A stretch of 53,696 bases of DNA from Candidatus Micrarchaeia archaeon (lineage in GTDB: Archaea; Micrarchaeota; Micrarchaeia; Norongarragalinales; UBA8480): assembly GCA_039794045.1 (NCBI GenBank), contig JBAMLY010000015.1, positions 6,404 through 60,099 on the forward strand, in the 5' to 3' direction. How positions within the stretch are numbered: position 1 is the stretch's first letter; each line of letters begins with the position of its first letter. A program made the position numbers. This document shows positions 48,001-53,696 of the stretch, in pieces.

Positions 48001-51000
48001 GCGACTTCTCCGAAGCCAACCGGCACGCCCTCATGTTGCGCGAACTGGTTAGTCGCGAAAACGTTTAAGTGCCCAACCACAGCAAACTGCCAAGCAAAAT
48101 AGCTTAGCACTAGCACGCCCCAGCAACACAACGCAAGCAGCCCGCCCTCGCGAGCGCTCCTCTTTGCCTCGCGCTTCTCTCCCAGCTCGCCCTTCAACCC
48201 AAGAGAGGAAGCAAGCGCGAAAACCCCGTACAAGAAAAGCCCGCCAGCCAAGAACAACGCAGTCTCTTGGTGAGTTAAAGCTACTACGGCAGCCAACAAC
48301 AACGAAGCCACCCACTTTCTTTCGAGCACGGCAAGCAAAGCAAGGGGAACAAGAAGCATTCCCACCGCCTGCGGCAACGGACGCACAGTGTAAATCAAGA
48401 GCTCTGCCGGCAACAACGAAAGAAAAGCCGCGAACAAGCCAGCGCGCTCGCCAAACATTTTTCTCGCAAGCGCGAAGAAAGCAAGAGGCGACAACGCGCC
48501 CACCACCATCACGCCGAGCCTGCTCGCTGCCTCAACCGACACCCCAGCCAGAATCACTGACGCGCCCACGAGAACTCGGTACAACGGCACGTACAAGAAC
48601 GGAATTCCTCCCCCGTAAGAATAATAGTCAACGCGAGGATAGAAGCCGGTTTCAGCGAACTCGCGCGCGGGCGCGGCATGCATTCCCGTGTTGCCGAACG
48701 TGGGCATGTAAAACTCTTGCAGCACCAGCGAGTGGCTCCAACAACTTAACGCCACCGCGACTGCGAGCACGACTAACGAAAATATTTTCCAGCGCTCCAC
48801 CCAAAATCACTTTACCTTGTAAACCACTGCACCCTCGTTGCCGAAGACTTTCTCGAAGTAGTTCGCGTCGCTGAACTTCTGCGCTTGCACGCTTTCCCAG
48901 CCGAAGCCGCAGTGCACTTGGCGCGAGGGAACAACCGCGTACGACGCGCCGTACTTGACTGCTATCTCATGAGCCTCTGCAGCAGAAGAAGAAACATAAA
49001 AACGCGTGACGTCACTCATTCTCTGCACGGCGTCAGGCGAGGTAGTCCAGTCTCCTCCCACGGGCGGCGCGCGCAACACGAGCGCCATCAACGTTTCGCC
49101 GCCGAAAATGTCGTACATTATGGTGGCGCGCGCCGGCGTGTTCGCGCCCAACCACTTTATCGCTTCCACTTCGCCTGGAACAACTACTGGAATAACCCAC
49201 GGCTTCGCTGAATCCACTGCACTAACAAAGTCAGTCCAACCAAGCCAGCCGACGACCAACAAGAACACCGCCGCGGCAGCCCACCCAATTTTATCATTCA
49301 TCGCATACCTTTAATTTTCAGCCAATTAAATAGTTTTCATGCCAGCGCACGCAATACAGCGAAACGCCTTCAACGAAATAGCCGTTGAATGGGATAAGAA
49401 CCGCCGCACGCCGTCACCGTGCCTTTCTCTCTTCCTCTCCCTACCCGCCCCAAACCGCTTCACCGCCTTAGACGAGGGATGCGGCAACGCGCGAAACGCC
49501 GTGGAAATAGCGAGGCACTACTGCAAAGTCGTCGCCTGCGACTCTTCCCCCCAAATGCTTGAAAAAGCGCGAGAGCGAGTCAAGCACGCTCGCGCCCTAA
49601 ACGTTGCCGTAAAACACGCGGACGCCGCCGACTTGCCTTTCGAGAGCAATTCTTTTGACGCCGTCTTTTCCCTTGCAGTACTGCACCTAATTTTCCCGGC
49701 CTCCAAGCGCTTCAAAGCATTCAAAGAAATCAGTAGAGTGCTCAAACCAGGCGGCCTCGCTTTCGTGAGTGTTTGGAACAAACAACAACCACGCTTCGCG
49801 AAAACGCGCGGCTCCACTACAGTGATTGCGAGCTTTGCAGGAAAGCAAGCACCACGCAAGTACTACTTTTTTTCTCCAGCCGAGTTCAAGAAAACCGCAG
49901 CCAAAGCAGGCCTGCAAACAATCAAAGTCTTTTTCGAGCGCGGCGGAGAAGCCACTCTAAAGAGAAGCGGCGCCGCAAACTTGTGCTTCGTCCTAAGAAA
50001 AAAAGTTTAGCCTTGGTACTTGCCTGCAATGAAGCAATGGTCTGCCTCGAAAGGATCCAGCACCACGAAGTCCGTCACTTCAACCCATTGCTTGAGTGCC
50101 TCGCGTTGCTCTGCGTAAACCTGTTTGGGAGGCTTCAACGAATTAATCGAGCGCGCCTTAACAGCGTACATTACCCACTTTGGCTTGAACACTGCAGCGT
50201 TACGCAAAAGAATTTGAGTCTGGTCTGGCGCTGCAACGTCTTCGTACAACACGTCCACTCCCCTCGGCACTGCGTCAACGTACTCTTCAGGCAATCGCGC
50301 GTCAGCCAAAATAGGGTACATGTTCTCGCGCTTCTCGCAAACGAAAATCAAGTCACGCATAGCGCGAGCGCTTTTTTCAACACAGTACAAGGCGCCGCCC
50401 ACACCAACAACATCGCTCGCGAAGCTCGCAGTGTAGCCATTCGCTGCACCCAAGTAAAGCACTCTAGCGCCCGGCGCTATGGGGCAGTTGCGCAAGCCTT
50501 TGACGATGGCGGCAGCGAGCTTGCTGCGCTTCGGGTCCCACAAACGGTATTCCACGCCACCCTCTTTCTTTACTGCCTCGCCAAACAAAGAACCGCGCGC
50601 CAGCGCGCGAGTGGCGAGCTTGCCGTTCAACGAAAAAATTCCTGGAAAACGTTCTTTGAAACGCATTTCAGCCAGCCCTTATCTTCTTCAACCGCTCTTC
50701 AAGTTCTTGCTTGAGCTTGGGGGCAATGAAAGAGTGAGAGTAAAAATCGGCTTTCGCGGCTATCGCCAGCTTTCCCGCCAGCGCTCGCGCCACCCTCCCC
50801 CTCTCTGCCGCTGGAGCACTGCGCACGATGCCGCAATTGAATATGACTCCGTGCTTTGGAGGGCGCGCCTTCAACCGCAAGTGCTTGAACAACGCTTTCT
50901 CGGCGCCAATTACTTGAATCGTGCTGGCAGGCATTTTCGCGAGCCGCTCCAACCCCCCCGCGGTTGTGACGAGGCGCGCCGCAAACAACGCATCAGTCAA

Positions 51001-53696
51001 GAAAGACAAGTTCTTCAGCTTCTCTCCAGCCAAGCGCTCGATGTAGGCTTCCACTTCCCTTCTTGCCTCGCAAAGTTCTTTCACTCGCTTTGCTAGACTC
51101 ATTACCGCCTTCCTGTCGTTCAAGTCAAAGCGCGCCCCAAAACTCTGTCCAGCGCGCTCCATCAACTCGACTGCCTTGTCTGCGCCAACTATTTCGCTCA
51201 AGCGATTGAACTCCAAGTCCTCCTTGTCTCCGAACTCGGCAATCAACGCGGCAGTAGCTTCCTCGTTGTCTAAAACAAGTTCAGGAAAGTTCAAGCGCGC
51301 CCACTCCTGCAAGCGCTGAAAAAGAAGAGACTTCGCCTCGTCTAAGTCGTCCAGCGCGCGCGTCGCCTGAATGAGAAGCAAGTCCTTCTCCGAGAAAGCC
51401 TTTTGCACGCCCGCCCTAGCTTGCGCCAGCAACTCGCTCCTAGACTTCAAAGCCAAACCAACCACTACCCAAATTATTTCAACGCAACACTATTAAAAAC
51501 AAGTACAGCCCCTCAAGTGCTCTCATGCAAAACCATAATGACTCAAAAAATTCAAGGCAACAAACTGGATTGCAGGCATTAAAGCAATCAACGCCTACAA
51601 GCTGCCCAGAATAAGAGTTTACTCGTGAGCGGCAAGACGCGGGATTAAATACCTTTTTTTCTTTCTTTTTTCATGGCCGCCAATCCAAAGAAGGGAAAGC
51701 CAGAGGAAGAGCAGAAGGACGACGTAGTCGCGAAAGTCGTCAACTTGTGCCAGCGCCGCGGAATAATTTTTCCGACGAGCGAAATCTACGGCGCCCCAGC
51801 CGGTTTTTTCGATTACGGGCCGTACGGCGCTCAATTGAAACGCAACCTTGAAAACTATTGGTGGGACTACTTCGTGCGCTTGCGAGAGGACGTGGTTGGA
51901 ATGGATGGCGCCATAATAACTAGTCCCGCCGTGTGGCAGGCGAGCGGCCACGTTGACTCCTTCAACGACCCACTCGTTGACTGCGCCAAATGCGGGTTGC
52001 GCGCTCGCGCCGACCACCTCGTAGAAGACGAATTGAAGATAAGCGTGGACGGCTTGTCGCTAGAGCACTTGCAGGAATTGATTGACGAGCACAAGATAAA
52101 GTGCCCAAAGTGCGGCGGCCCGCTTTCGCCTGTCCGATCTTTTTCGTTGATGTTCAAGACGAGCGTGGGCGCCGCCGGCGACGAGAAAAGCACGGCCTAC
52201 CTTCGCCCAGAAACAGCGCAACTCATCTTCGTTGACTTCAAGCAAGTGCAGTTCGTTTCGCGCAAGCAACTCCCATTCGGAATCGCGCAAATCGGGAAAG
52301 CATTCCGCAACGAGATAGCGCCACGCAACTTCGTTTTTCGGTGCCGCGAGTTCACGCAAATGGAGATAGAATACTTCGTGCACCCACAAAAAATGAATGA
52401 CTGCCCCCTCCTCTCGCCAGAACTCCTTGACGCAAGGCTGCCGCTTTACACGCAGAAAAACCAAGAAGAGAAAACTGCTGCCAGCCAAGAAACAGTGCGC
52501 GCCGCGCTCGACGCCGGAATAATTGGTTCACGGTGGCACGCTTACTGGCTCGCCGAATGCTTCACGTTCCTGCGCTTGCTTGGGCTGAAGAAAGAAAAGC
52601 TTCGCGCGCGCCAGCACTTGAAAGACGAGTTATCGCACTACTCGAGCGAGACGTGGGACTTGGAGTACGAGTACCCGTGGGGCTGGAAGGAACTGCACGG
52701 CATTGCGAACCGCGGCGACTTCGACTTGTCCCAGCACGCCAAGCACAGCGGAAAAGACTTGTCGTTCTTCGACCAAGCCGCCAACGAGAAAGTAGTGCCG
52801 CGCGTGATAGAGCCCTCGTGGGGCGTTGACCGCTTGTTGTTCACTCTGTTAATCGACGCTTTCACGGAAAAACCTCCGGCAAAGCAAGGAGGCGAGCCCC
52901 GCGTCGTGCTCTCGCTGTCGCCTCGCGTCGCGCCAGTTCAAGTTGCTGTCTTTCCTCTCGTCAGCAAAGACGAGCTCCCAGCCAAAGCGCGAAGCGTCTT
53001 CGAAGACTTGCGCTCGTGTTACTCGTGCGAGTTCGACGAGAGCGGAAGCATTGGCAGGCGCTACGCGCGCCAGGACGAGGTCGGCACGCCGCTCTGCGTC
53101 ACCATAGACTACCAGACCCTCGAAGACGACACGGTCACCGTCCGCGACCGCGACTCGGGCGCGCAAGAACGCGTCAAGGCAAGCGACTTGCGCGCCGTAG
53201 TTTGGAGGAAGCTTGGACTATAAACTAGTGAAAGCAATTGTTTGAAAGAGGTGCATTGCAGTGAGTGGATTGATAGTCAAGTCCGCGGCAGCCGCTTTCA
53301 TGAAGAAAAACGGCTTGCGAACTTCAACGAGTTTCTACGACTCACTCGACAAAGCAGTAGAGGCACTGCTTGAAGCGGCAGTAAAGCGCGCCAAAGCAAA
53401 CAAGCGGCAAACCGTGATGGCGCAAGACGTGTAAGCAAGCCCCCTTGCCTTGCTTCCGATAGTTTTTTATTCAACTAAGGAGCTTCTTTATTTGTGTACA
53501 AGAAAATCGCAGCAATAATCCTCGTGCTCGCCGTGGCCTCTATTCTAGCCGCGTTCTCGCTCCCCCAAAACAATTTTCATTCTCAGTCAAGCGCTTCCCG
53601 CGCTTACCACGCCGAGTTCAAGAAACGCCCCGGCTACTTCACAGACTACTGCATGTTGGCGAAGGAAGCAAGCTTTGCTCGTCCCAACTTTGCACT

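Follow-up and report, generated by a model that had tools for sequence, protein, structure and literature searches.

The window, a stretch of 53,696 nucleotides from a contig of a Candidatus Micrarchaeia archaeon, encodes a Nop5 without its N-terminal fibrillarin-docking domain (NTD). By vertical descent the gene goes back to the box C/D scaffold Nop5, and it is cut exactly at the boundary between NTD and hinge. What remains is the hinge helix, the coiled coil and the Nop domain, the part that binds L7Ae and RNA; what is missing is the fibrillarin-docking part of roughly 110 residues. This loss is an old one that runs through whole lineages, spanning the Micrarchaeota and a second DPANN phylum. 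The NTD of Nop5, Nop56 and Nop58 is treated as the fibrillarin-recruiting element of the box C/D particle in passages of PMC6239191 and PMC7962484. With a Nop5 that lacks this methyltransferase-holding domain, fibrillarin must be recruited by some other route. On balance we favor a truncated Nop5, descended from this old loss, to which fibrillarin is joined by a smaller, non-canonical contact.

The Nop5–fibrillarin locus

The features of the locus are collected in Table 1. Nop5 and fibrillarin meet in the sequence TGA-A-ATG. Upstream of the GTG start, the Nop5 frame is closed by a stop at 8 codons, with more stops further out. The stop-to-stop frame is 273 aa, as given by the first-pass annotation, and an NTD exon would not fit into the intergenic region, which is too short. 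The TATA-like box may be the promoter of Nop5, and the transcript may be leaderless. The sole sequencing run listed with the stretch is DNA, possibly its source, and none with RNA data covering it is listed.

Table 1 Features of the Nop5–fibrillarin locus, in positions of the window.
Feature	Position	Strand	Evidence and remarks
Convergent class I SAM methyltransferase gene	49339..50010	+	Pfam Methyltransf_25/11; boundary downstream of fibrillarin
Fibrillarin, 219 aa	50007..50666	-	One base past the Nop5 stop; Pfam, PDB phmmer
Nop5 orthologue without NTD	50668..51465	-	265 aa, GTG start, TGA stop; ORF, Pfam, PDB phmmer, AF2
Coiled coil (helices 28–59 and 115–149, tip 68–107) and Nop domain	50671..51390	-	Secondary structure of the model
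Nop domain motif GAEKALFxH...PKHG	inside 50671..51390	-	Invariant columns
Hinge helix, residues 9–24	51394..51441	-	Helix in AF2 model; column statistics
Intergenic region between Nop5 and divergent aminoacyl-tRNA synthetase gene, 207 bases	51466..51672	.	Read directly; stops in Nop5 frame
TATA-like TTTTTAATA	51491–51499	-	About 30 nt 5' of the Nop5 GTG
Divergent class II aminoacyl-tRNA synthetase gene	51673..53223	+	Pfam tRNA-synt_2b, HGTP_anticodon; one boundary of the locus

The NTD loss is no artefact of the assembly, of the start codon or of a split gene. Two things would speak for an artefact: the assembly consists of 16 contigs with runs of N, and the public call of the same gene (246 aa) chose yet another start. 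Against a wrong start codon, a frameshift, a misassembly or a gene split with its other half at a contig end stand the in-frame upstream stops and the short intergenic region, the identical boundary in most genomes of the phylum and in the second phylum (see below), and the DNA run, which contains the stretch whole. We regard any such error as highly improbable.

Architecture of the short Nop5

The Pfam Nop family (PF01798) spanned residues 38–261 of the protein (E 1.2e-47). By phmmer against the PDB, residues 14–263 aligned with positions 124–376 of Pyrococcus Nop5 (E about 1e-57) and residues 15–263 with positions 124–375 of Saccharolobus Nop5, and no part of the query aligned with the first 123 sequence positions of the solved Nop5 proteins (about 117 in entry numbering). 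The region thus agrees with the first-pass annotation, but its 124–376 are indices of the sequence record; in entry numbering, query residue 14 is Pyrococcus residue 118. The closed frame, this alignment from the hinge on and NTD profiles without a match together bear out the claimed absence of the domain.

The AF2 model had a pLDDT of 93.4 and superposed as a whole on residues 108–377 of Saccharolobus Nop5 (3pla_A, Z 26.2). Its two-helix coiled coil superposed on those of solved Nop5 proteins, and dimerization is predicted. Ten residues were invariant in 45 short forms: G187, A188, E189, L192, F193, H195, P203, K204, H205 and G206.

With the archaeal Nop5 proteins of known structure (aNOP56/58; 2NNW/3NMU, 3ID5/3PLA) the window's protein shares the hinge helix, the coiled coil with its tip and the Nop domain, at 38–43% identity over the shared part and a Z of about 26; an operon with fibrillarin is also common to both. 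The N-terminal alpha/beta fibrillarin-binding domain of these proteins, and the aromatic cluster of its helix alpha6, are both missing from the window's protein. The best structural match was 3NVI (3nvi_A; Z 26.3, rmsd 1.8, 243 residues), an engineered, N-terminally truncated Pyrococcus Nop5. It is bound to L7Ae and box C/D RNA, so that, going by the entry title, a truncated Nop5 can still assemble. 3NVI was made in the laboratory, whereas the protein of the window is the form that occurs naturally in whole lineages; its N-terminus extends about 14 residues further (residue 23 of the model corresponds to Pyrococcus furiosus (Pf) residue 127). The Nop5 of Archaeoglobus fulgidus (1NT2), with an NTD of residues 1–71 according to a passage of PMC7962484, also has a reduced architecture, but keeps a folded fibrillarin-binding NTD, unlike the window's protein. 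Its sequence alignment was limited to query residues 123–263.

Prp31 (2OZB, 3SIU), the eukaryotic paralogue of the U4 snRNP, likewise consists of a coiled coil and a Nop domain and has no NTD. It has no bound methyltransferase, as far as the relevant passage of PMC11213020 goes. The structural match (Z 22.5, 24% identity) and that passage uphold the Prp31-like architecture seen in the first pass. By sequence the window's protein is closer to Nop5 (phmmer E 8e-58) than to Prp31 (E 9e-15), and Prp31 is a eukaryotic, spliceosomal protein, whereas the window's Nop5 gene lies in an operon with fibrillarin.

Distribution of the short form

Nop5 was matched in 120 of 121 genomes of the phylum, the match beginning at query residue 2–15 in 112 of the 120, in line with the earlier claim that all sampled Micrarchaeota have the short form. 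A folded NTD was found in none of the nearest 120 homologues. The short Nop5 is not confined to Micrarchaeota: it also occurs in a second DPANN phylum (titled Iainarchaeum in the record), where its frame is at most 344 aa long in 48 of 61 genomes. Arg/Gly-rich arms were present on about a third of the Nop5 homologues. Ten outlying short forms were also examined; three had a source name, and among the ten there was one “Diapherotrites” and one “Micrarchaeia”.

The NTD state required 9 changes on a FastTree phylogeny of 258 rows (7 partial ones dropped) and 6 on a quick IQ-TREE phylogeny of 129 rows, both with many unverified metagenomic gene calls and weak deep branches. The AU test rejected a single clade of all NTD-less rows (p 0.003), subject to the same unverified gene calls and weak deep branches. 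A full-text literature search found no paper describing the loss of the NTD from Nop5. New here are the second phylum with the short form, the gene order across the phylum, the zinc-ribbon/TPR gene described below and the Arg/Gly-rich arms.

Fibrillarin and L7Ae

The fibrillarin encoded next to Nop5 is a normal one, as the first pass had stated. The Pfam family Fibrillarin (PF01269) covered residues 4–218 (profile positions 4–226 of 227, E 2.2e-68), phmmer matched archaeal fibrillarins in the PDB (E 6e-54), and the methyltransferase domain is full-length. Across 43 fibrillarins of the phylum 25 columns were invariant, and the gene is kept in 119 of 121 Micrarchaeota genomes. L7Ae-family genes are present in the genome, again as annotated before.

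In archaeal complexes a conserved Tyr of fibrillarin is clamped by a cluster of aromatic residues on helix alpha6 of the NTD, according to a passage of PMC7962484. The corresponding position stays aromatic here (Y94), and among 51 fibrillarins whose lineages have an NTD-less Nop5, 47 had Y or F there. At the sites of Pf Y102, E136, K143 and R170, taken from the same paper, 51 fibrillarins from NTD-less lineages and 17 from canonical lineages showed no useful difference.

The hinge helix as candidate contact

The hinge helix is the sole part of the window's Nop5 that falls within the Pyrococcus 1–123 “NTD construct”, and it is the candidate for a residual fibrillarin contact. Residue 18, within this helix, corresponds to R122 of Pf Nop5, a contact of fibrillarin E136 (passage of PMC7962484). 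The alpha6 aromatic cluster maps to query positions 0, 1 and 4, and most homologues are without these positions because they start at positions 6–7.

Arg9 was retained by 67% of the canonical Nop5 forms (83 compared) and by 91% of the short ones (128 compared). Ala16 occurred in 91% of the short forms versus 37% of the canonical ones, and position 24 was Y, F or L in 93% of the short forms and mostly S or A in the canonical ones. The helix is conserved in canonical Nop5 as well, so its conservation need not reflect fibrillarin. The remaining N-terminal helix of the first-pass annotation does exist, but it is the ordinary hinge helix found across Nop5 proteins and no special remnant.

Search for a separate docking protein

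A separate, unrecognized adaptor, either a stand-alone NTD that has diverged or a protein of unrelated fold, might tether fibrillarin in this genome, which is 92% complete. We searched for the NTD with an HMM built from 93 NTDs and with a second NTD alignment. The HMM found nothing among the six-frame ORFs of this genome (best E 0.04), and the alignment gave 0 matches in this genome and nothing credible in 121 genomes of the phylum (best E 1.5e-4, an unrelated protein) or in 61 of the second phylum. In controls, the HMM matched 66 of 66 complete Nop5 frames from loci titled as other phyla, and the alignment matched 5 of 5 control genomes; in two control phyla the profiles reached no better than E about 1e-6, and a strongly diverged stand-alone NTD could therefore escape these profiles. 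The ORF behind the E of 0.04 (contig C7, 17509–18669) was ruled out as an NTD, with an hhalign probability of 3%, no Pfam family and no usable Atlas match. The best match in the phylum was ruled out too, being a zinc-ribbon/TPR protein of another fold.

In two Micrarchaeota families a conserved zinc-ribbon/TPR gene directly follows fibrillarin (50 of 58 genomes). The model of the protein (pLDDT 92) shows a helix and a zinc ribbon together with a TPR-like solenoid, and the coupling of its gene to fibrillarin suggests that other adaptors exist. This in-phylum precedent, the limited reach of the profiles and the 92% completeness of the genome favor an adaptor; however, no NTD-like ORF was found in this genome with profiles or hhalign, and no homologue of the zinc-ribbon/TPR protein either. 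Nor is there a conserved neighbor of fibrillarin: in seven loci of the same taxonomic order the only candidates were an M48 peptidase (2 loci) and a class I methyltransferase (in one relative's genome this gene adjoins fibrillarin, as it does here), and 30 fibrillarin loci from other families had no conserved neighbor. We consider a separate adaptor in this genome quite unlikely.

Gene order and guide RNAs

The first pass had placed fibrillarin directly downstream of Nop5. That is correct here but an exception among the Micrarchaeota, in which Nop5 and fibrillarin neighbor each other in just 4 of 118 genomes and are unlinked in 114. Among 30 Nop5 loci (this genome's included), 27 had no fibrillarin within 1.5 kb. 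This mostly unlinked order fits a loosened partnership. In all 61 genomes of the Iainarchaeum-type phylum, fibrillarin lies downstream of the short Nop5 on the same strand, no more than 350 nt away in 37 of them and never further than 3.1 kb.

Guide RNA scans were uninformative for this genome, since the patterns catch only guides of the Thermococcales type. With this restriction, a strict C-D'-C'-D regex matched nothing in the genome and nothing in 20 shuffles, and C/D boxes with a terminal stem gave 1 match versus 0.6 expected. The full pattern matched 3 times in a Thermococcaceae genome and not at all in the four others, and the equally restricted half pattern had 15 in the Thermococcaceae genome versus 2 in the reversed control, 1 versus 2 in this genome and 1–2 in other archaea.

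The unlinked gene order also speaks for an uncoupled system, in which Nop5 would be an enzyme-free, Prp31-like, L7Ae-dependent kink-turn RNA-binding or chaperone protein, and fibrillarin would act alone or with others. The match to Prp31 in fold and architecture and the conserved partner gene of fibrillarin in two families speak for it as well, and the failure of the Thermococcales-type patterns to find guides does so weakly. Guide-independent methylation has a reported precedent, though by a fibrillarin–Nop5 heterodimer (abstract of PMC5558902). Against it are the tight operon of this genome, a gene order kept throughout the second phylum long after the NTD was lost, and a sequence much nearer to Nop5 (E 1e-57) than to Prp31 (E 1e-14). 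We judge an uncoupled system unlikely.

Proposed assembly and implications

In our favored reading, that of a truncated Nop5 with a smaller contact, the protein most likely still forms dimers and joins L7Ae on kink-turn guide RNA, by analogy with 3NVI. Fibrillarin, made here from the same tightly coupled operon, probably enters the particle by a smaller non-canonical contact and not by the NTD clamp. We infer from the one-base junction, the gene order of the second phylum and the retention of fibrillarin that the partnership continues; the candidate contact site is the hinge helix, with its conserved, lineage-specific Ala16, Lys/Arg17, Val20 and aromatic residue 24, together with the guide–substrate duplex.

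A wider proposal, possible but held tentatively, is that in two DPANN phyla RNA-guided 2'-O-methylation works, or has been re-wired to work, with a dockless minimal Nop5, fibrillarin being attached loosely or modularly and recruited in lineage-specific ways. In this genome and the Iainarchaeum-type phylum, where the operon has persisted, recruitment might go through the hinge helix and the guide–substrate duplex; in the two Micrarchaeota families it might go through the zinc-ribbon/TPR adaptor encoded after fibrillarin. The Arg/Gly-rich, RNA-binding arms of Nop5, reminiscent of the GAR domain of eukaryotic fibrillarin, could help.

Natural lineages that have long kept fibrillarin, L7Ae and the rest of Nop5 while lacking the NTD offer a test of whether the enzyme dock is dispensable, and a view of the minimal sufficient contact. 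At 265 and 219 aa, Nop5 and fibrillarin are small and come from a hot-spring organism, and their expression and reconstitution should be easy. The NTD-less Nop5 is a natural counterpart, in archaea, of the step from which eukaryotic Prp31 arose, and gives an opportunity to see how a multi-subunit RNA-guided enzyme may swap its enzyme-recruitment module. If the proposal is true, the link between enzyme and scaffold in the box C/D RNP would be an evolvable, replaceable module and not a fixed feature.

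Nop5 in the window lacks the N-terminal domain

The genes for Nop5, the box C/D RNP scaffold, and fibrillarin are adjacent, with fibrillarin second and a one-base gap at the junction (TGA-A-ATG). As first annotated, the Nop5 frame is closed upstream: two stop codons lie 8 codons before the GTG, more follow farther up, and the stop-to-stop frame is 273 aa. By sequence comparison, residues 14–263 aligned with positions 124–376 of Pyrococcus Nop5 and residues 15–263 with positions 124–375 of Saccharolobus Nop5. Nothing aligned to either protein upstream of position 124. According to the structural alignment these positions are sequence-record indices, and only in this sense does the reported start at Pyrococcus position 124 hold; by the numbering within the PDB entry, query residue 14 corresponds to Pyrococcus residue 118.

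The AF2 model, built on 45 NTD-less Nop5 (short forms; pLDDT 93.4), had a coil (1–8), a helix (9–24), coiled-coil helices (28–59 and 115–149) with a helical tip, and the Nop domain. Its top structural match was 3nvi_A (Z 26.3, rmsd 1.8, 243 residues), an engineered [quoted passage not shown]. The entire model overlaid residues 108–377 of Saccharolobus Nop5 (3pla_A, Z 26.2), and Prp31 was next among the matches (Z 22.5). The closed frame, the alignment and the model agree that the N-terminal, fibrillarin-docking domain (NTD) is gone.

Features of the Nop5–fibrillarin locus (window positions) and of the zinc-ribbon/TPR gene of genome G033
Feature	Position	Strand	Remarks
Nop5 ORF, 265 aa	50668-51465	minus	GTG start; Pfam Nop residues 38-261, E 1.2e-47
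Fibrillarin ORF, 219 aa	50007-50666	minus	Pfam Fibrillarin residues 4-218, E 2.2e-68
Class I SAM methyltransferase gene	49339-50010	plus	Convergent on fibrillarin
Zinc-ribbon/TPR gene	L062:976-1755	minus	G033; homologues at loci L068-L077, L164-L183; family ~270 aa

A TATA-like TTTTTAATA is located ~30 nt upstream of the Nop5 GTG, which fits a leaderless transcript. Just 207 bases lie between the Nop5 start and a class II aminoacyl-tRNA synthetase gene that runs divergently. The public gene call P0001 (246 aa) begins at Nop5 residue 20, omitting window positions 51409–51465 (minus strand). Its start is probably mis-called, cutting off a conserved stretch from Arg9 to Gly19; because residues 9–19 are conserved in the family, the 265-aa Nop5 is the better reading. 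The downstream fibrillarin is normal and L7Ae-family genes are present in the genome, both as annotated before. A class I SAM methyltransferase gene, found here beside fibrillarin, also adjoins it in genome G085 and is near it in G112.

Truncation at the hinge

Passages of PMC7962484 describe a conserved Tyr of archaeal fibrillarin clamped by aromatic residues of helix alpha6 of the Nop5 NTD (W104, F105 and Y108 in Pyrococcus furiosus, or Y113, Y114 and L117 in Saccharolobus solfataricus), and a contact between P. furiosus Nop5 R122 and fibrillarin E136. The alpha6 clamp positions fall on query positions 0, 1, 4, 5 and 8, and R122 on query residue 18. In an alignment of 83 canonical (NTD-bearing) and 128 short forms, most short forms started at query positions 6–7, which is 1–3 residues ahead of a hydrophobic-Arg motif (Arg9). 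This motif is common to both kinds (67% of canonical and 91% of short forms), and the truncation therefore lies exactly at the boundary between NTD and hinge. Helix 9–24 is nothing other than the hinge helix of canonical Nop5, with which the “Pf 1-123” construct ends, and not the special remnant that the first-pass annotation had made of it. Ala16 of the hinge helix was found in 91% of short but 37% of canonical forms, and position 24 is aromatic or Leu in 93% of short forms, whereas canonical forms mostly have Ser or Ala.

Search for an N-terminal domain encoded elsewhere

An NTD HMM was trained on 93 NTD-bearing Nop5 from a representative search, using their N-terminal regions. None of 155 short forms was matched, nor any of 16 forms whose N-terminal extensions are of low complexity, nor any of 30 fetched Micrarchaeota Nop5 loci. 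The six-frame ORFs of the window's genome (655 kb, 92% complete) gave no credible match (best E 0.04). The ORF behind this best hit, C7:17509-18669 (+) (locus L193; 387 aa), was rejected as an NTD (3% hhalign probability, no Pfam family); it had no usable Atlas look-alike.

As controls, 66 of 66 complete Nop5 frames were matched by the HMM in loci titled as other phyla, including Bathyarchaeota, Thermoproteota, Nitrososphaerota, Methanobacteriota, Thermoplasmatota, Hadarchaeota, Promethearchaeota, Geoarchaeota and one contig titled Chloroflexota bacterium. The only two misses were frames cut by a contig end. Locus L148, titled Candidatus Limnocylindrales bacterium (Chloroflexota), encodes a full archaeal Nop5 with NTD (E 4e-26) and is probably a misbinned archaeal contig.

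An independent alignment of 17 NTD sequences (A1) had no match in the window's genome, none better than E 1.5e-4 across 121 Micrarchaeota genomes, and no credible NTD in 61 genomes of a second DPANN phylum, that of a record titled Candidatus Iainarchaeum. All five control genomes were positive with A1, two of them only at E ~1e-6, so the profiles could miss a stand-alone NTD that has diverged strongly. That fibrillarin is linked by an undetected adaptor protein seems to us quite unlikely.

The best A1 match in Micrarchaeota landed by chance in an ORF of 259 aa right after fibrillarin in G033. Its predicted fold, a helix, a zinc ribbon and a TPR-like solenoid (pLDDT 92), had only generic TPR proteins as structural matches, and the protein is not an NTD homologue. 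Four Cys are invariant in it, as is a Y..GFMEEN-type motif. With the profile A5, built on this protein, strong homologues turned up in nearly all of family f7 (36 of 38 genomes) and throughout f8 (22 of 22), 58 genomes in total; the rest of Micrarchaeota, the window's genome included, had none. In 50 of the 58 the gene is on the same strand, ≤1 kb downstream of fibrillarin. The protein is plausible as a candidate lineage-specific fibrillarin partner.

Distribution of the short form

The best 120 homologues from a search of 5.8 billion proteins all lacked the folded NTD (120/120), and their source labels, where given, were Micrarchaeota, Micrarchaeia or Norongarragalinales. A Nop5 match was present in 120 of 121 Micrarchaeota genomes. 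(Micrarchaeota counts on Nop5, fibrillarin, A1 and A5 matches include one unpublished genome, G029.) The Nop5 match started at query residue 2–15 in 112 of the 120; the other eight were divergent or split matches. Ahead of the match, 24 of the 30 fetched loci had ≤47 in-frame residues, three had translated R/G/P-rich arms, and three had long open frames, apparently read-through antisense to the neighbouring gene. This boundary, with no NTD by A1, bears out the earlier claim of a short form throughout the sampled Micrarchaeota.

The short form is not confined to this phylum. Scanning species-representative genomes, we found it also in the Candidatus Iainarchaeum record and in three other archaea (G122, G123 and G124), G122 and G123 belonging to the same GTDB phylum as the former. 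All 61 genomes of this second phylum had a Nop match, 48 in frames of ≤344 aa. In-frame stops occurred in the matches of G146 (two TAA), G134 (two TGA) and G170 (one TAG and one TAA). One outlying short form was labelled “Diapherotrites” at source. Nop5 trees, with weak deep branches and unverified gene calls, needed 6–9 changes of state, and under the same limits the AU test rejected a single NTD-less clade (p 0.003).

About one third of the best 120 homologues bear Arg/Gly-rich repeat arms; the window's own Nop5 has none. N-terminal extensions of 31–159 aa, all Arg/Gly/Ser/Pro-rich repeats, were found in 10 of the 120 (e.g., P0083, P0084, P0075 and P0087), and C-terminal extensions of 40–199 aa (R 20%, G 19% and P 11% when pooled) in 30 (e.g., P0095, P0034, P0022 and P0016). 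The arms are reminiscent of the GAR domain that eukaryotic fibrillarin carries.

Gene order and function

Gene order says more about function than any other new evidence. Each of the 61 genomes of the second phylum has fibrillarin downstream of the short Nop5, sharing its contig and strand, at ≤350 nt in 37 and ≤3.1 kb in all; the gaps examined were taken up by C-terminal arms or by the insertion of a gene for a secreted protein. An ancestral Nop5–fibrillarin operon was thus retained through much divergence after NTD loss, which argues that the two proteins still work together. An uncoupled, Prp31-like role of the NTD-less Nop5 is, in our estimate, unlikely though conceivable.

The two phyla contrast sharply. 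Fibrillarin was above the Pfam cut-off in 119 of 121 Micrarchaeota genomes, yet was adjacent to Nop5 in only 4 of the 118 having both, in canonical order in the window's genome (G000), G055 and G076 and reversed in G005. In G031 the genes are 2.3 kb apart. The window's genome is therefore among the few operon keepers of its phylum.

In full-text searches on Nop5, fibrillarin, DPANN and Micrarchaeota, we found no description of an NTD-less archaeal Nop5; in the passages covered of the IS110-Nop5 preprint (PMC11213020), NTD loss is mentioned for Prp31 only.

The window combines an NTD-less, otherwise intact Nop5 with an intact, conserved fibrillarin and operon coupling, in a genome with L7Ae-family genes. 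The NTD is the fibrillarin dock in passages of PMC6239191 and PMC7962484, and Nop5 without it can still bind L7Ae and C/D RNA, according to the title of 3NVI. A box C/D particle would still form with such a Nop5, and fibrillarin probably attaches through a contact smaller than the NTD, for which hinge helix 9–24 would be the best candidate.
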